From the NCBI RefSeq assembly GCF_003018115.1, contig NZ_CP027457.1: DNA of 64,000 nt; one strand, 5' to 3'. The position numbers and the translations under genes are program-made. The notes beneath the pieces are model-generated. The model was not told the origin of the DNA and made no database searches. It saw only the letters and a list, made by a program, of their open reading frames with translations. Source of the DNA: Escherichia coli (lineage in GTDB: Bacteria > Pseudomonadota > Gammaproteobacteria > Enterobacterales > Enterobacteriaceae). The stretch's first letter is position 1. Each line of letters starts with the position of its first letter. Shown here piece after piece: positions 1 to 8,846 of this stretch.

Positions 1-1216
1 GTCATTCAGCGCGGTAAGTTGCAGCCAGGAGAATATCGCGGCGTTTATCAACAAAATCAAAGCGTCACCGTGGTTTAAAGATACCGTCATCGTCGTCTCT
101 TCTGACCATTTAGCGATGAACAACACGGCGTGGAAATACCTTAATAAGCAGGATCGCAATAACCTGTTTTTTGTCATTCGTGGCGACAAGCCGCAGCAAG
201 AGACGCTGGCAGTGAAGCGTAACACGATGGATAACGGCGCGACGGTGCTGGACATTCTCGGTGGCGATAACTATCTCGGACTTGGTCGTAGCAGTTTATC
301 CGGGCAGTCAATGTCGGAAATCTTCCTCAATATCAAAGAGAAAACATTGGCGTGGAAGCCGGATATCATCCGCCTGTGGAAATTCCCTAAAGAGATGAAA
401 GAGTTCACCATCGACCAGCAGAAAAACATGATTGCCTTCTCGGGTAGCCATTTCCGTTTGCCGCTGCTGTTGCGGGTTTCAGACAAACGCGTGGAACCGC
501 TGCCGGAAAGCGAATACTCAGCACCGCTGCGTTTCCAGCTGGCCGATTTCGCTCCACGCGACAATTTCGTCTGGGTTGACCGTTGCTATAAGATGGCACA
601 ACTCTGGGCTCCGGAACTGGCACTCTCCACCGACTGGTGTGTCTCGCAAGGGCAGCTTGGCGGTCAGCAAATTGTTCAGCATGTTGACAAAACAACATGG
701 CAGGGCAAAACGGCATTTAAAGATACGGTCATCGACATGGCGCGTTATAAAGGCAATGTCGATACGCTGAAAATTGTTGATAACGATATTCGCTACAAAG
801 CCGACAGTTTCATCTTCAACGTCGCCGGTGCGCCAGAAGAGGTGAAACAGTTTAGTGGGATTTCCCGTCCAGAGTCGTGGGGCCGCTGGTCCAACGCGCA
901 GCTGGGCGATGAAGTAAAAATCGAGTACAAGCATCCGCTGCCGAAGAAATTTGACCTGGTGATTACCGCCAAAGCATACGGCAATAACGCCAGCCGTCCT
1001 ATTCCGGTACGCGTAGGCAATGAAGAACAAACTCTTGTGCTGGGCAATGAAGTGACCACCACCACACTGCATTTCGATAACCCAACCGATGCCGACACAC
1101 TGGTAATTGTGCCGCCGGAACCTGTCTCAACCAACGAAGGGAATATCCTCGGACACTCGCCGCGTAAGCTCGGGATCGGCATGGTGGAAATTAAAGTTGT
1201 GGAACGTGAAGGGTAA
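1..1216 (+). CDS. opgB: Phosphoglycerol transferase I (OPG biosynthesis), C-terminal part; 5' end lies outside the window
   Basis: Frame is open from position 2 and reads ...[37 protein letters not shown]..., continuous with the 116..1216 ORF; matches OpgB/MdoB as recalled. Synteny with lgoDRT and tsr. Confidence 0.85.
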
Positions 1217-1225
1217 TTTCTGACT

Positions 1226-1260
1226 GATGTGTAGGTCGCATAAGGTGCGACCTACACATC
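1226..1260. terminator. Perfect 15-bp inverted repeat with 5-nt loop between convergent opgB and lgoD; putative bidirectional terminator, REP-like tail (CCGGCCTACA)
   Basis: GATGTGTAGGTCGCA-taagg-TGCGACCTACACATC read directly; no clean T-tract follows. Confidence 0.5.
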
Positions 1261-1355
1261 TTCTCCGGCCTACAAAACATCATTGAGAAACAGAAAAAAA
1301 ACAGCGCCCAACACTTCCCCGGACGCTGCATGGCAACTTTAATAATCTCGCCTTA

Positions 1356-2378
1356 TCAGAAAGTAATTACACCCTTAATCAACTCACGATTGTTAATCAC
1401 ATCGCGCTCGTAGGTTTCTGCCAGCGTGGCGAACGGATAGCGATGGGTTAACATCATGTCGGCAGTGATTTTTCCTTCCGCCATCAGTCGACCGACTTTA
1501 GCAAAATCTTCCGGCGTGGCGTTGCGGCTGCCCATCATCGTCGTTTCTTTTTTATGGAATTCCGGATCGGAGAACTGCAACTCACCTTTAAACAGGCCGA
1601 CAAATACCACCGTGCCGCCGTGACGAATCAAATTCACGGTGTTATTCATCGCATGTTGATTACCTGTCGCGTCGATCACTTTCTGCGCCAGCGAACCACC
1701 AAACTGCGCCCGTAGCTGCGCGTCAAAATCTTCGGCTGACGGGTCCAGTAAAGGTAATTCCAGACGCGTTGCCACATGTTCACGGCGCGCCGGACTGGTA
1801 TCCGCCACCACCACCTGTGCGCCATCGGCTTTAGCGATTGCCGCCGCGCCCAGACCGATTGGCCCCGCCCCGACCACCAGCACCTGCTCGCCGGGAGCAA
1901 TGGCTGCGCGACGCACCGCATGAGCGCTAATAGCGAAAGGTTCAATCAATGCGGCCGCCTGCGGGTCAATACCGTCTGCGGGCAAAATGTTCGCCACCGG
2001 CACGCTCAAATACTCACTAAAACCGCCATCCTGATGCACGCCAATGACTGAAATTTTTTCACAGCAATTGGTACGCCCGCTTTTACACGCCGGGCATTGC
2101 TGACAGGCAACATAAGGGATCACAGCAACTTGCTGACCATTTTTAAGATCAGCAATATTTTTACCCAGCCCAACAATCTCCCCACATATTTCATGGCCTA
2201 AAACCCGTGGATAACTAAAAAATGGTTGATTTCCACCCCAGGCATGAATATCGGTACCGCAAATCCCGACAGACTTAATTTTTATTAATGCTTCATTGTC
2301 ACCCGGAATAGGTATCTCACGTTGTTTCCAGACTAATTCTTTCGGCTGCAGGCAAATTAAAACATTCATCGTAGACAT
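1356..2378 (-). CDS. lgoD: L-galactonate 5-dehydrogenase (Zn-dependent alcohol dehydrogenase family)
   Basis: Translation has GHEICGEI zinc-ADH motif and GxGxxG Rossmann region. Start set at the MSTMNVLIC Met (2378), not the upstream ORF-track Met, by recall of YjjN. Confidence 0.85.
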   Translation of the reverse strand: MSTMNVLICLQPKELVWKQREIPIPGDNEALIKIKSVGICGTDIHAWGGNQPFFSYPRVLGHEICGEIVGLGKNIADLKNGQQVAVIPYVACQQCPACKSGRTNCCEKISVIGVHQDGGFSEYLSVPVANILPADGIDPQAAALIEPFAISAHAVRRAAIAPGEQVLVVGAGPIGLGAAAIAKADGAQVVVADTSPARREHVATRLELPLLDPSAEDFDAQLRAQFGGSLAQKVIDATGNQHAMNNTVNLIRHGGTVVFVGLFKGELQFSDPEFHKKETTMMGSRNATPEDFAKVGRLMAEGKITADMMLTHRYPFATLAETYERDVINNRELIKGVITF

Positions 2379-2516
2379 GATTCGGCTCTCCATTTTTTGT
2401 TGCCTTAGATATCAATGAAAATGAAAAATGGCAGCGGAACGGAAAATCTGTTTTGTGAAAACACACGCATAAAAATGTTTTAAATCGGGTTTTAATGGAC
2501 TCACAAGGAGGAAAAT

Positions 2517-3431
2517 ATGAGTCGTTCACAAAATTTACGCCACAATGTGATTAACCAGGTCATTGATGATATGGCGCGGGGTCATATCCCTTCCCCACTT
2601 CCATCGCAAAGTGCGCTGGCGGAAATGTACAACATCAGCCGCACTACAGTGCGTCATATTCTCAGCCACTTACGCGAATGCGGCGTCTTAACGCAGGTTG
2701 GAAACGACTATGTTATTGCGCGTAAACCTGACCATGATGACGGTTTCGCCTGTACTACCGCTTCAATGAGTGAACAAAACAAAGTGTTTGAGCAGGCTTT
2801 TTTCACGATGATAAACCAGCGTCAGTTACGCCCTGGGGAAACTTTTTCTGAACTGCAACTGGCTCGGGCCGCGGGTGTCAGCCCGGTGGTTGTAAGAGAA
2901 TATCTTTTAAAATTCGGCCGTTATAATCTTATTCAAAGCGAAAAGCGCGGCCAGTGGAGCATGAAGCAATTCGATCAATCCTACGCCGAGCAGCTGTTTG
3001 AGCTACGCGAAATGCTCGAAACACATTCACTTCAGCACTTTCTCAACCTGCCTGATCATGATCCCCGCTGGCTGCAGGCGAAAACCATGCTCGAACGTCA
3101 TCGGCTACTGCGTGACAACATCGGCAATAGCTTTCGCATGTTCTCGCAACTTGACAGAGATTTTCACTCCTTACTGCTTTCAGCTGCCGACAATATCTTT
3201 TTTGATCAATCGCTTGAGATCATCTCAGTCATCTTTCATTTTCACTATCAATGGGACGAAAGCGATCTTAAACAGCGCAATATCATTGCCGTCGATGAGC
3301 ATATGACCATTCTCAGCGCTCTGATTTGCCGCAGTGACCTTGATGCCACCCTTGCGCTCCGTAACCATTTGAATTCAGCGAAACAATCAATGATTCGATC
3401 CATTAATGAGAACACGCGTTATGCTCATTAA
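2517..3431 (+). CDS. lgoR: GntR-family transcriptional regulator of L-galactonate utilisation
   Basis: 304-aa ORF with N-terminal HTH-like region and FCD-type C-terminus; position between lgoD and lgoT. Confidence 0.8.
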   Translation: MSRSQNLRHNVINQVIDDMARGHIPSPLPSQSALAEMYNISRTTVRHILSHLRECGVLTQVGNDYVIARKPDHDDGFACTTASMSEQNKVFEQAFFTMINQRQLRPGETFSELQLARAAGVSPVVVREYLLKFGRYNLIQSEKRGQWSMKQFDQSYAEQLFELREMLETHSLQHFLNLPDHDPRWLQAKTMLERHRLLRDNIGNSFRMFSQLDRDFHSLLLSAADNIFFDQSLEIISVIFHFHYQWDESDLKQRNIIAVDEHMTILSALICRSDLDATLALRNHLNSAKQSMIRSINENTRYAH

Positions 3432-3645: not shown

Positions 3646-5007
3646 GTGGAAAAAGAAAATATCACCCTCGATCCGCGTTCTTCATTTACTCCATCTTCGT
3701 CGGCAGATATTCCCGTGCCACCAGATGGATTAGTTCAACGCAGTACCCGAATTAAACGCATTCAAACCACCGCCATGTTGTTATTATTTTTTGCGGCGGT
3801 AATCAATTATCTCGACCGCAGTTCGCTGTCGGTAGCAAATTTAACGATTCGTGAAGAATTGGGATTAAGTGCCACCGAAATCGGCGCTTTGCTCTCCGTG
3901 TTTTCACTCGCTTACGGCATTGCGCAACTTCCTTGCGGCCCACTATTAGATCGTAAAGGCCCACGCCTGATGCTGGGACTGGGGATGTTCTTCTGGTCAC
4001 TGTTCCAGGCCATGTCTGGCATGGTGCACAGCTTTACGCAGTTCGTGTTGGTGCGTATCGGTATGGGGATTGGTGAAGCGCCGATGAACCCATGCGGTGT
4101 AAAAGTCATTAACGACTGGTTCAACATCAAAGAGCGCGGACGCCCGATGGGCTTCTTCAACGCAGCTTCTACCATTGGCGTTGCCGTAAGCCCACCGATT
4201 CTGGCGGCGATGATGCTGGTGATGGGCTGGCGCGGGATGTTTATTACCATTGGTGTACTGGGGATTTTTCTCGCCATCGGCTGGTATATGCTCTATCGCA
4301 ACCGCGAGCACGTAGAACTGACTGCCGTTGAACAAGCTTATCTCAATGCAGGTAGCGTCAATGCCCGCCGAGATCCGCTCAGTTTTGCCGAATGGCGCAG
4401 CCTGTTCCGTAACCGCACAATGTGGGGAATGATGCTCGGATTCAGTGGCATCAACTACACTGCGTGGCTGTACCTAGCCTGGCTTCCTGGTTACCTGCAA
4501 ACAGCCTATAACCTGGATTTAAAAAGCACAGGGTTGATGGCGGCTATCCCTTTCCTGTTTGGGGCTGCCGGGATGCTGGTCAACGGCTACGTTACTGACT
4601 GGCTGGTCAAAGGGGGAATGGCTCCGATTAAAAGCCGTAAGATCTGCATTATTGCCGGGATGTTCTGTTCTGCCGCCTTTACGCTGATAGTACCACAAGC
4701 GACAACATCCATGATGGCGGTTCTGCTGATTGGCATGGCACTGTTCTGTATTCACTTTGCCGGAACATCCTGCTGGGGCTTGATCCACGTCGCAGTTGCT
4801 TCTCGCATGACTGCGTCGGTGGGCAGTATCCAGAACTTTGCCAGCTTCATCTGCGCCTCTTTCGCGCCGATCATTACTGGTTTTATTGTTGATACAACCC
4901 ACTCATTCCGTCTGGCACTAATCATTTGCGGTTGCGTCACCGCAGCGGGAGCACTGGCGTACATCTTCCTGGTTCGTCAGCCGATCAACGACCCGCGTAA
5001 AGATTAA
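3646..5007 (+). CDS. lgoT: MFS transporter (L-galactonate:H+ symporter)
   Basis: 453-aa hydrophobic ORF, GTG start with AGGAG 6 nt upstream; matches YjjL as recalled. Confidence 0.85.
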   Translation: MEKENITLDPRSSFTPSSSADIPVPPDGLVQRSTRIKRIQTTAMLLLFFAAVINYLDRSSLSVANLTIREELGLSATEIGALLSVFSLAYGIAQLPCGPLLDRKGPRLMLGLGMFFWSLFQAMSGMVHSFTQFVLVRIGMGIGEAPMNPCGVKVINDWFNIKERGRPMGFFNAASTIGVAVSPPILAAMMLVMGWRGMFITIGVLGIFLAIGWYMLYRNREHVELTAVEQAYLNAGSVNARRDPLSFAEWRSLFRNRTMWGMMLGFSGINYTAWLYLAWLPGYLQTAYNLDLKSTGLMAAIPFLFGAAGMLVNGYVTDWLVKGGMAPIKSRKICIIAGMFCSAAFTLIVPQATTSMMAVLLIGMALFCIHFAGTSCWGLIHVAVASRMTASVGSIQNFASFICASFAPIITGFIVDTTHSFRLALIICGCVTAAGALAYIFLVRQPINDPRKD

Positions 5008-5014
5008 ACTCCCT

Positions 5015-5048
5015 ATGCCCGATAACATTTTGCTTATCGGGCATTTTT
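5015..5048. terminator. Rho-independent terminator hairpin between convergent lgoT and tsr
   Basis: ATGCCCGATAA-cattttgc-TTATCGGGCAT followed by TTTT. Confidence 0.55.
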
Positions 5049-5055
5049 ATGGCGA

Positions 5056-6720
5056 TTAAAACGTTTCCCAGTTCTCCCCGCTATCTGCCACTGCCATTTT
5101 ACGCGGCGTAGCTGGCGTCACGGTTTTTACCACAGCCGATGTTTCACGCTGCTGTTGCTGCTGTTGCTGAATCCGGAACACTGCCACAGCTTCGGTCAGG
5201 CGACTGGCCTGCTCTTCCAGCGCGGCGGCGGCGGCGGCAGATTCTTCCACCAGCGCGGCGTTCTGTTGAGTTACCCGGTCCATCTCAGCAACCGCTAAGC
5301 CAACCTGATCGATACCACGGCTCTGCTCATCAGAAGCAGAAGCTATTTCGCCCATAATGTCCGTCACGCGGGTCACAGCACTGACAATCTCCGCCATTGT
5401 TTCCCCGGCGCTTTCGACCAGCGTAGAGCCAACATCCACTTTCCCCACCGAGTCTTCAATCAGGCTTTTAATTTCACGAGCCGCCTGGGCGCTACGCTGG
5501 GCCAGATTACGCACTTCTCCCGCAACCACCGCAAAACCACGTCCTTGCTCACCCGCACGCGCTGCTTCAACCGCCGCGTTCAAAGCCAGAATATTGGTCT
5601 GGAAGGCAATGCCGTCAATTACGCTGATAATATCGGCGATTTTCTGCGAACTGGTGGAGATATCACGCATAGTCTGCACCACGTTATCTACCACTTTGCC
5701 GCCGCGTTGCGCCGTTTCAGAAGCACTTAACGCCAGGTGGCTGGCCTGGCGCGCATTCTCGGCGTTCTGTTTCACCGTTGCGGTCAGTTGCTCCATGCTG
5801 GCTGCCGTCTCTTCCAGCGAAGCGGCCTGTTGCTCGGTGCGCGAAGAGAGATCGTTATTGCCGGTGGCGATTTCGCTGGCACCGCTATAAATGGCATTGG
5901 CCCCGTTGCGCACATCACCGACGGTACGCATCAGCTCTCCCTGCATATGGCGCAAACTCTCTGCCAGTTGCCCCATCTCATTAGAGCCATCCACCTCAAT
6001 CGGTTTCACCAGATCGCCGCCTGCAATATGACGAATGCTGTCAATCAGGCGATTCATTGGCGCTACCAGCGAGGCTTTAATACCGAACCAGACGGCGAAG
6101 ATGACCGCCAGTACGACGATCATCACGCCCACCAGAATCCACATCGCCTGGCTGTAGGAGGCATTGTTATCGCTGACGGCGATATCATAGAGCCGATCGT
6201 TTTGCTCCATGTAAGCCACATACTGCTTCTCGAAACCGTCTTGATATCCCTGAGTCGGCTGATCAAAGAACTCGTTGATTTTGCCTGCACCTAACAGTTG
6301 GATCAGCTCCGCCAGCGCATTGTGATAAATATCGTAATTACGTTTGATCTCTGCCGCTGCGGCGGTGCTCTGACGCGGGTCACGCGGCAACGCTTCGTAA
6401 TCCGCCCAGTTTTTTTCCGCCTGTTTCAGCGAAATACTGGCACTCTGCATCAGCTCAGCAACGGTTGAACCGCTACCAATATTATTCTGATCCATCATGT
6501 AGCGGATACCCGCGCGGTTGAGGGTGTTACGCGTCTGCAACAACGCGACCCAGCTGCCATTCAGCGTGGATTGCTGCTGGCGAATGGTTTGTAAAACAGT
6601 GAAATTTTCTTTGTCATTCTTTAAGGCATTAAAGAACAGACCGCCTGATGTCAGTTGTAAAAGGCCAAAAACGGCCAAAACCAGCAGTAAGCTGGTCACG
6701 ATCTTGATACGTTTTAACAT
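5056..6720 (-). CDS. tsr: Methyl-accepting chemotaxis protein I (serine chemoreceptor)
   Basis: 554-aa ORF with HAMP and MCP signalling domain, methylation-region [14 protein letters not shown]-terminal NWETF pentapeptide; N-terminus [22 protein letters not shown] matches Tsr. Confidence 0.95.
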
Positions 6721-6838: not shown

Positions 6839-7285
6839 TTATTCATTATCGCCCGGGATGTCTTCTTGTCGGGAATTGCCCAGAGCAATAAATTCCTCTA
6901 ACAGATGGGTTAACTGTTGCATTTTCTCGGCAGTAAACTGAGCTTCAATCTGCCGATAGGCTTCTTCAATCTGTGTCTGGGCGCGGTTATACAGCGCCTG
7001 CCCCTCTTTGGTTAGCGAGATATAGAGCTTCCGCTGATCATTGATCGGCTTTAATCGCAACACTAAACCGTCGCGTTCCATCCGCGTGAGGATCCCGGTC
7101 AGGCTTGGGCGCAAAATGCAGGCGCGATACGCCAGATCGTGAAAATCCATTGATGGGCTTTCCGCCAGAATACGCACGATGCGCCACTGTTGCTCAGTCA
7201 AATTATGCCGTTTAACGATTGGGCGAAAATAACTCATCGCCGCTTCTCGCGCCTGGAGCAACGCAATGGTTAGTGAGTCGTGCAT
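6839..7285 (-). CDS. hpaR: MarR-family repressor of the homoprotocatechuate (hpa) meta-cleavage operon
   Basis: Translation from MHDSLTIALLQAREAAM... (149 aa), MarR-type winged helix; divergent from hpaG. Start chosen at the internal Met by recall of HpaR length. Confidence 0.85.
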   Translation of the reverse strand: MHDSLTIALLQAREAAMSYFRPIVKRHNLTEQQWRIVRILAESPSMDFHDLAYRACILRPSLTGILTRMERDGLVLRLKPINDQRKLYISLTKEGQALYNRAQTQIEEAYRQIEAQFTAEKMQQLTHLLEEFIALGNSRQEDIPGDNE

Positions 7286-7507
7286 TATCTTTCCCCTGAA
7301 AAATTCAAAATCATTAATATAGAAACAGTTAATCGTCACGTTACCGGGACTGCGCTGTCCCTGCAATTCCTGATTTTATCAAAATTGATGATATTTTATT
7401 AACTTACTGATATTTAATATTTTATTATCTTTAAATGTAAATAGTTTGTTAATTAGATCACATTTATATCACTTACTTTTGCCAAACTACGCAATCGGGA
7501 ATAAAAG

Positions 7508-7531: not shown

Positions 7532-7556
7532 AGATGATCGAATCCGAGGAGTGGTA

Positions 7557-8846
7557 ATGAAAGGCACTATCTTCGCCGTAGCATTGAACCATCGCAGCCA
7601 ACTTGATGCCTGGCAGGAAGCGTTCCAGCAATCTCCCTACAAAGCCCCGCCTAAAACTGCGGTCTGGTTTATTAAACCGCGCAATACGGTGATTGGTTGC
7701 GGTGAACCGATTCCCTTTCCACAGGGTGAAAAGGTACTGAGCGGTGCGACAGTTGCGCTGATTGTGGGAAAAACGGCGACGAAAGTACGTGAAGAAGATG
7801 CGGCAGAGTACATCGCCGGATATGCGCTGGCTAACGACGTCAGCCTGCCGGAAGAGAGCTTTTACCGCCCGGCAATCAAAGCAAAATGTCGTGATGGATT
7901 CTGCCCCATTGGCGAAACCGTGGCTCTCAGCAATGTCGATAATCTGACTATCTATACCGAGATCAACGGGCGTCCTGCCGATCACTGGAATACCGCCGAT
8001 TTACAACGTAACGCCGCACAGCTGCTGAGCGCCCTGAGCGAATTTGCCACGCTAAATCCAGGCGATGCCATTCTGCTCGGCACGCCACAGGCGCGCGTGG
8101 AAATACAGCCAGGCGATCGCGTGCGTATTCTCGCAGAAGGTTTCCCGCCGCTGGAAAATCCGGTAGTGGACGAACGTGAAGTGACCACGCGCAAGAGCTT
8201 CCCAACGCTGCCACACCCGCACGGTACGCTGTTTGCCCTCGGCCTGAACTACGCCGACCACGCCAGCGAACTGGAATTTAAGCCACCGGAAGAGCCGCTG
8301 GTGTTCCTGAAAGCGCCGAATACCCTCACTGGCCATAACCAGACCTCCGTGCGCCCGAACAATATTGAATACATGCACTACGAAGCGGAGCTGGTGGTAG
8401 TTATTGGCAAGCAGGCGCGTAACGTCAGCGAAGCCGATGCCATGGATTATGTCGCGGGCTACACCGTGTGTAACGACTACGCCATTCGCGACTATCTGGA
8501 AAACTACTACCGCCCTAACCTGCGGGTCAAAAGCCGCGACGGACTGACGCCGATGCTTTCAATCATCGTGCCGAAAGAGGCGATCCCGGACCCGCATAAT
8601 CTGACCCTTCGCACCTTCGTCAACGGCGAGTTACGCCAGCAAGGCACCACCGCCGATCTGATCTTCAGCGTGCCCTTCCTGATCGCCTACTTAAGCGAAT
8701 TTATGACCCTGAATCCGGGCGACATGATCGCCACCGGCACACCAAAAGGCTTATCTGACGTGGTGCCTGGCGATGAAGTAGTGGTAGAAGTAGAAGGCGT
8801 GGGCCGCCTGGTGAACCGAATTGTGAGTGAGGAAACAGCGAAATGA
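7557..8846 (+). CDS. hpaG: Bifunctional OPET decarboxylase / HHDD isomerase (FAH family)
   Basis: Two tandem fumarylacetoacetate-hydrolase-like halves in the translation; ATG at 7557 preferred over the ORF-track GTG at 7551. Confidence 0.9.
   Translation: MKGTIFAVALNHRSQLDAWQEAFQQSPYKAPPKTAVWFIKPRNTVIGCGEPIPFPQGEKVLSGATVALIVGKTATKVREEDAAEYIAGYALANDVSLPEESFYRPAIKAKCRDGFCPIGETVALSNVDNLTIYTEINGRPADHWNTADLQRNAAQLLSALSEFATLNPGDAILLGTPQARVEIQPGDRVRILAEGFPPLENPVVDEREVTTRKSFPTLPHPHGTLFALGLNYADHASELEFKPPEEPLVFLKAPNTLTGHNQTSVRPNNIEYMHYEAELVVVIGKQARNVSEADAMDYVAGYTVCNDYAIRDYLENYYRPNLRVKSRDGLTPMLSIIVPKEAIPDPHNLTLRTFVNGELRQQGTTADLIFSVPFLIAYLSEFMTLNPGDMIATGTPKGLSDVVPGDEVVVEVEGVGRLVNRIVSEETAK

Follow-up and report, generated by a model that had tools for sequence, protein, structure and literature searches.

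The tsr gene of Escherichia coli contains, in the region that encodes the carboxy-terminal tail of the serine chemoreceptor, an in-frame repeat of 9 nucleotides that occurs in one to four units and changes recurrently by whole units. We interpret this repeat as a largely neutral polymorphism of tether length, and give this reading a probability of about 0.8. The tsr gene and its linker are textbook knowledge, as is the role of the terminal NWETF pentapeptide in tethering, and in-frame repeat polymorphisms are common. This is ordinary variation in a known gene, and the polymorphism is plainly visible in public sequences, among them two structures that show both forms: PDB 3ZX6 has seven Gln codons' worth of tract, and 6S1K has the K-12 sequence with the shorter tract. 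No published description of the tsr repeat polymorphism, and no sign of its use as a typing locus, was found in the literature searched.

Identity and neighborhood of the gene

The window (the whole stretch of E. coli DNA that was analyzed, 64,000 nucleotides in length) contains on its minus strand, at positions 5056 to 6720, a reading frame of 554 codons plus a stop. The preliminary description took this frame for tsr, which encodes the serine chemoreceptor (MCP-I), and three kinds of evidence bear it out: the product has the TarH (PF02203, 9.3e-55), HAMP (PF00672, 2.1e-12) and MCPsignal (PF00015, 2.3e-62) domains; all of the matches listed are annotated in RefSeq as tsr or methyl-accepting chemotaxis protein; and the carboxy-terminal 140 residues are identical (140/140) to a PDB 3ZX6 chain ('methyl-accepting chemotaxis protein I'). 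The protein also matches the full-length Tsr in 6S1K. The domain set, together with orthology established through near-identity and a conserved neighbor, places the product among the Tsr/Tar-type transmembrane chemoreceptors. The last 245 nucleotides of the gene have matches in 5,382 of 5,426 complete E. coli genomes; the other 44 have no match to the 3' end of tsr, and three of the matches are located on plasmids.

The conserved neighbor is lgoT (an MFS transporter; 3646 to 5007, plus strand), which lies downstream of tsr and is convergent with it, as in K-12. The same convergent arrangement is found in HS and O157:H7, among others, and a TRAP-transporter large permease takes the place of lgoT in LF82, O18, MS20657, RM14723, A13, Z1323HEC0355, Z1002 and ET734. 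Both the Tsr and the LgoT proteins of ATCC 11775 are identical to those of K-12. The 48-nucleotide gap between the stop codons of tsr and lgoT contains an 11-bp inverted repeat (ATGCCCGATAA ... TTATCGGGCAT, 5015 to 5044), which is probably a terminator hairpin shared by the two genes. Upstream of tsr, the reading frames at 6839 to 7366 (minus strand) and 7551 to 8846 (plus strand) resemble what we take to be hpaR and hpaG of the 4-hydroxyphenylacetate cluster, which is presumably absent from K-12 and present in E. coli B, C and W.

A nine-nucleotide repeat encoding glutamine

Residues 518 to 524 of the 554-residue Tsr are glutamines. They are encoded on the minus strand at 5149 to 5169 by CAG CAA CAG CAG CAA CAG CAG, and thus the run of seven CAG/CAA codons described earlier was confirmed by base reading. 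The span of 5147 to 5170 given with it was slightly too wide: it includes two nucleotides of the Arg525 codon at the low end and one nucleotide of the Ile517 codon at the high end. The tract consists of one CAG codon followed by two perfect copies of the 9-nucleotide unit CAACAGCAG (Gln-Gln-Gln), and can equivalently be written as two copies of CAGCAACAG followed by CAG. Tandem Repeats Finder describes it as 2.4 copies of period 9 with 100% matches at 5148 to 5169, and the tract is therefore the two-unit allele of a coding tandem repeat with perfect head-to-tail units. Such a run is beyond chance expectation, which for seven consecutive Gln residues is about 4e-4 runs per whole E. coli proteome (Gln frequency of about 0.044). 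When all six frames of the window are examined for stop-free stretches of 100 codons or more, no further run of at least five identical residues turns up in them except for an Ala6 run in the same gene.

The Ala6 run (SAAAAAAL, encoded by (GCC)5 GCG at 5221 to 5238, minus strand) is a period-3 repeat with a 100% match in Tandem Repeats Finder. Its length is constant in all 19 E. coli alleles read (see below), in which it varies only by synonymous GCC/GCT changes, and the ortholog consensus has six Ala residues as well.

Position of the tract in the receptor

In an alignment of 76 cytoplasmic domains, the residues F515, R516 and I517 of Tsr (alignment columns F251, R252 and I253) are invariant and conservation collapses directly after them, the consensus soon turning to 'x'. 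Position 517 has likewise been described as the last conserved one, with a non-conserved tail beyond it (PMC4692393). The Gln tract begins directly after the codon of Ile517 (5170 to 5172, minus strand), the last conserved residue of the kinase-control domain. It is followed by the remainder of the linker (residues 525 to 549; 5074 to 5148, minus strand), which is poorly conserved between genera, and by the NWETF pentapeptide (residues 550 to 554; 5059 to 5073, minus strand), which serves as the docking site of CheR and CheB (PMC7390727, PMC10561060). The W and F of the pentapeptide are invariant across the 76 orthologs, in keeping with an xWxxF pattern. The tract thus lies in the carboxy-terminal linker, as had been proposed, although not just before NWETF: it opens the linker and is separated from the pentapeptide by 25 residues. 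This is the receptor-proximal end of the CheR/CheB tether, within the non-conserved segment between I517 and NWETF. The linker and NWETF together recruit CheR and CheB (PMC7390727), and the Tsr tether, counted from I517, has 30 residues in K-12 compared with 34 in Tar (PMC10561060).

Whether additional Gln residues lengthen a flexible chain or a helix depends on where the helix of the kinase-control domain ends. One possible but tentative reading is that the Gln units prolong the carboxy-terminal helix and shift the anchor of a disordered tail of constant length, the helix possibly packing along HAMP. AlphaFold2 models of a monomer fragment (residue 265 to the end, Q7 and Q13 forms, 75 orthologs) speak for such a helix, since the helix ends six residues after the tract in each case (Tsr 530 for Q7, Tsr 536 for Q13) and is followed by the same 24-residue disordered tail of low confidence. 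The tract itself is modeled as helical with moderate confidence, and the pLDDT falls along it from 84 to 57 in Q7 and from 85 to 73 in Q13; from model residue 268 (Tsr 532) onward it is below 50 in Q7. This drop through the tract argues against an extended helix, as does the nature of the model, in which a monomer fragment offers the helix no partner beyond 517. In the published descriptions, too, the flexible chain starts at I517 (PMC10561060) and the residues after 517 form a non-conserved tail (PMC4692393), and the deposited chain sequence of 8C5V ends at 516, that of 1QU7 at about 520. If the helix is in fact extended, the extra Gln residues would lengthen a helical stub, by about 0.15 nm per residue, rather than a coil. 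We favor the flexible tether, in which the tract would form the first segment after Ile517 of the tail that ties NWETF, where the CheR methyltransferase and the CheB methylesterase dock, to the receptor body.

Length alleles and their frequencies in E. coli

Counting Gln codons in other strains had been put forward as a test of length variation, with an identical length everywhere as the refuting outcome. Four lengths were found: in the 19 alleles available for comparison (the window and 18 further E. coli tsr genes read base by base), the tract has 4, 7, 10 or 13 codons, corresponding to one to four units, and the reading frame and the NWETF end are kept in all. Each allele can be written as CAG + n x CAACAGCAG, with n = 1-4. 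The four-codon allele (Q4, CAGCAACAGCAG) is carried by K-12, O18, PCN033, ATCC 11775 and ET734; the seven-codon allele (Q7) by the window, O157:H7, STEC1590, Z1002, 2013C-3492 and LR-60, the last with one Gln changed to His; the ten-codon allele (Q10) by HS, LF82, 94-3024, MS20657 and PapRG-04-4; and the thirteen-codon allele (Q13) by RM14723, A13 and Z1323HEC0355.

Across the 5,382 complete E. coli genomes with a tsr match, Q7 accounts for about 75%, so that the window carries the commonest allele, Q4 for about 23%, K-12 among them, and Q10 for about 1.5-2.5%. Sixty evenly spaced genomes, assigned to alleles from the extent of the match, comprised 47 Q7, 12 Q4 and 1 Q10, and a second spread sample of 40 comprised 30, 9 and 1, respectively. 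With the 245-nucleotide query, 4,065 genomes fall into the identity band of at least 95% and 1,317 into that of 90-95%. Arithmetic on the identity bands of further queries yields about 1,240 Q4, about 4,030-4,065 Q7 and 72-103 Q10 genomes (1.3-1.9% for Q10, which agrees with the single Q10 in each of the spread samples); about 20 genomes have identity values that fit none of the Q4, Q7, Q10 and Q13 classes. Queries with a short left flank gave 68 full-length matches for Q10 and exactly 3 genomes for Q13, both of which are lower bounds, since these queries can be seeded in 4,135 of the 5,382 records. Q10 tracts with two or more flank mismatches are limited by the bands to at most 91 genomes. 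Three other counts were set aside: the short-flank coverage counts for Q4 and Q7, in which two overlapping pieces were joined into places of full coverage; a 139-nucleotide Q13 query, whose top rows were Q7 alleles split in two pieces; and the band of at least 95% of a 130-nucleotide Q10 query, which with 253 records overcounts this allele.

Metagenomes provide a check that is independent of the genome set. A DNA pattern with a variable gap retrieved 106 contigs, in which the tract is 12 (23 contigs), 21 (78) or 30 nucleotides (5) long, and of no other length. The proportions of Q4, Q7 and Q10 are similar to those in the complete genomes.

Several of the genes differ from the window by more than tract length. 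The His-interrupted tract of LR-60 (QQQQQHQ; CAA CAT CAG at locus positions 1632 to 1652) recurs in 12 of the 106 metagenome contigs, and an LR-60 121-mer has exact matches in 2 of 40 evenly spaced RefSeq rows, which suggests that this form is carried by a few per cent of genomes. The tsr gene of E. coli 2013C-3492 (NZ_CP027445.1, locus positions 8 to 1705) encodes 565 residues; it contains a perfect 33-nucleotide tandem duplication in the second methylation helix, corresponding to about 5215 to 5247 (minus strand) of the window, and a Gln-to-Leu change just after it. This insertion of 11 residues into the coiled coil would be expected to affect the function of the receptor. In Z1002, Arg516 of the otherwise invariant F-R-I, directly before the Gln tract, is replaced by Leu.

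The tract changes by nine nucleotides, not by one codon

The preliminary description treated the tract as a trinucleotide repeat that can vary in length between strains. Strain-to-strain variation was found, but the one-codon unit does not hold: the mutating unit is the 9-nucleotide repeat and not the codon. Synthetic queries with five, six or eight Gln codons had no gap-free match among their best matches in the 5,382 genomes. The best matches to these queries and to one of nine codons were always Q4, Q7 or Q10 with a 3-nucleotide gap. The nine-codon query was modeled on the QQTQ6 tract of E. whittamii (see below), and such an allele was rejected as a candidate for E. coli, as no gap-free match stood at the top. 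The lack of matches at intermediate lengths, together with the restriction of the 106 metagenome contigs to tracts of 12, 21 and 30 nucleotides, identifies 9 nucleotides as the step, and the alleles found (12, 21, 30 and 39 nucleotides only) differ by whole units, as do those of variable-number tandem repeats.

In a classic trinucleotide microsatellite, slippage by single CAG or CAA codons would produce any number of Gln residues. The tract can indeed be read with period 3, as 7.3 copies in Tandem Repeats Finder, but with only 78% matches. Furthermore, 19 of 19 alleles read and 106 of 106 metagenome tracts have 4, 7, 10 or 13 codons, and the failure of the five-, six- and eight-codon queries stands equally against this explanation. 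Because of the CAA codons, no more than two CAG codons stand next to each other, in keeping with the lack of slippage by single codons. Taken together, these observations make a one-codon microsatellite very unlikely.

Since repeats are known to cause assembly errors, a sequencing or assembly artefact at a site of low complexity is another conceivable explanation of the length differences. However, the tract is at most 39 nucleotides long, far below read length, and the collection consists of complete genomes only. Independent assemblies of one strain agree in their allele (four of HS and two of LF82), and unrelated metagenome assemblies show the same three lengths in similar proportions. We therefore regard the artefact as refuted for practical purposes.

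Recurrence, history and stability of the length changes

A neighbor-joining tree built from 1,656 ungapped sites (95 of them variable) in the 19 tsr genes shows the four lengths scattered over its branches, and Fitch parsimony requires at least nine length changes on it. Closely related genes can differ in length: the tsr genes of O18 (Q4) and Z1002 (Q7) are 2 SNPs apart in 1,656 nucleotides, those of MS20657 (Q10) and RM14723 (Q13) are 4 apart, and 10 SNPs separate the window (Q7) from PapRG-04-4 (Q10). Among the matches listed, at least seven genomes carry Q4 between 100-nucleotide flanks identical to those of the window, and in the metagenomes tracts of 4, 7 and 10 codons can all end in the His-marked unit (CAA CAT CAG). 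The homoplasy of length and the difference in length between alleles only 2-4 SNPs apart indicate that units have been gained and lost recurrently. Part of this homoplasy could have come from recombination between tsr alleles instead of new mutation.

Units may be gained and lost through strand slippage at replication, or through unequal recombination, between the perfect 9-nucleotide copies, and a tract with more copies would offer more choices of register. Q4, which has a single unit and only 3 nucleotides of repeat overlap, should accordingly be the most stable allele. The two-unit state is probably ancestral in E. coli, since it is shared with the sister species E. whittamii, and Q4 would then have arisen by loss of a unit, Q10 and Q13 by gain.

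The rate of change appears to be low on laboratory time scales, because independent assemblies of the same strain have one allele: all those of HS (four), LF82 (two) and 8178 (three) are Q10, and the many K-12 derivatives seen are all Q4. A high rate of switching is thus not what these strains display. A phase-variable contingency locus was also considered and rejected, as the unit of 9 nucleotides leaves all alleles in frame and with the NWETF end, so that there is no on/off switch, and as the copy number is low and the alleles are stable in culture.

The tail in other species

One genome per species was scanned with an exact degenerate DNA pattern for T[EQ]AVAVFRI, which yielded 98 complete tails. 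This set includes a few paralogs and non-enterobacterial chemoreceptors, so that not all of its members are confirmed Tsr orthologs, and the exact pattern misses orthologs with other codons or residues: E. coli, E. albertii and E. fergusonii are absent from it. Measured from T509 to the carboxy terminus, the tail has 46 residues in 54 of the 98 sequences and 45-47 in 78. The corresponding lengths in E. coli are 43 (Q4), 46 (Q7), 49 (Q10) and 52 residues (Q13); the Q7 tail therefore has the modal length of the Enterobacteriaceae sampled, and the Q4 tail of K-12 is three residues shorter.

The Tsr orthologs of other Enterobacteriaceae, including other Escherichia, resemble that of E. coli in the T[EQ]AVAVFRI boundary, in a Gln-rich start of the type IQQEQQ[RK]AR... 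and in NWETF-type ends. They differ in that their Gln runs are not tandem repeats. The longest Gln run is at most 2 in 94 of the 98 tails, and the start of the tail in other genera is Gln-rich and non-repetitive (Salmonella IQQEQQRAREV, Citrobacter IQHDQQRARDV and Enterobacter IQQEQMKAREF). Two other Escherichia genomes (L032 and L083) have IQQ[AT]QQRQHEALPVVK, in a tail that is also 46 residues long. Outside E. coli, a duplicated CAACAGCAG unit was found among the 98 tails only in E. whittamii Sa2BVA5, whose tract consists of CAG CAG ACG followed by 2 x CAACAGCAG and encodes QQTQQQQQQ. It keeps a Thr codon where the Escherichia genome L083 also has Thr, and the E. whittamii tract looks like an intermediate form.

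Likely effect on the chemoreceptor

For every unit, NWETF is separated from the receptor body by three more residues, and the four alleles thus have tethers of 30, 33, 36 or 39 residues. K-12 Tsr agrees with the window protein in its position next to lgoT, its domain set, its NWETF end and the start of the tract at 518 after I517, but it has a single unit (QQQQ), 551 residues and a 30-residue tether where the window protein has two units, 554 residues and a tether of 33. The tail of the window protein further differs from that of K-12 by A534T and E545G (K-12 numbering).

A close counterpart is the 34-residue tether of Tar, an unstructured chain that, like the tail of Tsr, is non-conserved and runs from the receptor body to NWETF; its length determines the position at which tethered CheR works. 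The Tar linker is Pro-rich and contains no Gln repeat (PMC10561060, Table 1), and its length variants were engineered whereas those of Tsr are natural. Truncation and extension of the Tar tether have been studied (PMC10561060; Li and Hazelbauer 2006, as cited in PMC7390727), and with engineered Tar tethers of 22, 29, 34 and 46 residues the peak position of tethered CheR is a linear function of length, with a slope of 0.128 +/- 0.048 nm per residue (PMC10561060). By this measure, one Gln3 unit should shift the peak by roughly 0.4 nm, and the range from Q4 to Q13 should correspond to roughly 1.2 nm, about as much as the spacing of 1.05 nm from one methylation site to the next. As the shift of about 0.4 nm per unit is smaller than this spacing, a subtle change in adaptation kinetics, or none, is to be expected. 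The functional effect of the length alleles is therefore probably small, and the polymorphism would be largely neutral and kept within a tolerated window.

A different explanation is that copy number acts as a dial, selected to tune adaptation kinetics to the niche in the manner of a contingency locus. The recurrence of length change, the measurable effect of Tar tether length on the positioning of CheR (PMC10561060) and the tight clustering of the tail at 46 residues across genera, which suggests that length matters, could all be taken in its favor. The clustering, however, fits stabilizing rather than diversifying selection, and the in-frame nature of all changes, the low copy number of one to four units and the stability of the alleles in re-sequenced strains, noted above, speak against a locus of this kind. 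In addition, none of Q4, Q7 and Q10 is evidently tied to a niche among the matches listed, each of the three being represented by isolates from humans, animals and the environment. Selection of copy number to fit the niche is thus distinctly unlikely, and we return to a largely neutral polymorphism. In its perfect head-to-tail units, its alleles of whole units and its homoplasy between lineages, this polymorphism resembles the in-frame variable-number tandem repeats, or minisatellite-like loci, of bacteria, from which it differs in its very low copy number (1-4) and in residing in a cytoplasmic signaling protein instead of a surface protein.

A related proposal, that the natural tsr alleles form a graded tether series (30, 33, 36 and 39 residues) by which the speed or precision of adaptation in serine chemotaxis is tuned to a measurable degree, also seems to us unlikely. 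If it were true, the tether of K-12 would be unusually short, both beside that of about 75% of E. coli and beside the modal 46-residue tail of the Enterobacteriaceae. In either case K-12, whose receptors were used for the tether measurements cited here, carries a minority short allele, and models of the tether that are calibrated on K-12 receptors therefore describe a less typical length. With the Q4, Q7, Q10 and Q13 alleles, nature supplies a set of tether lengths on which the tethered-particle model of CheR action (PMC10561060) could be tested in Tsr without artificial linkers.
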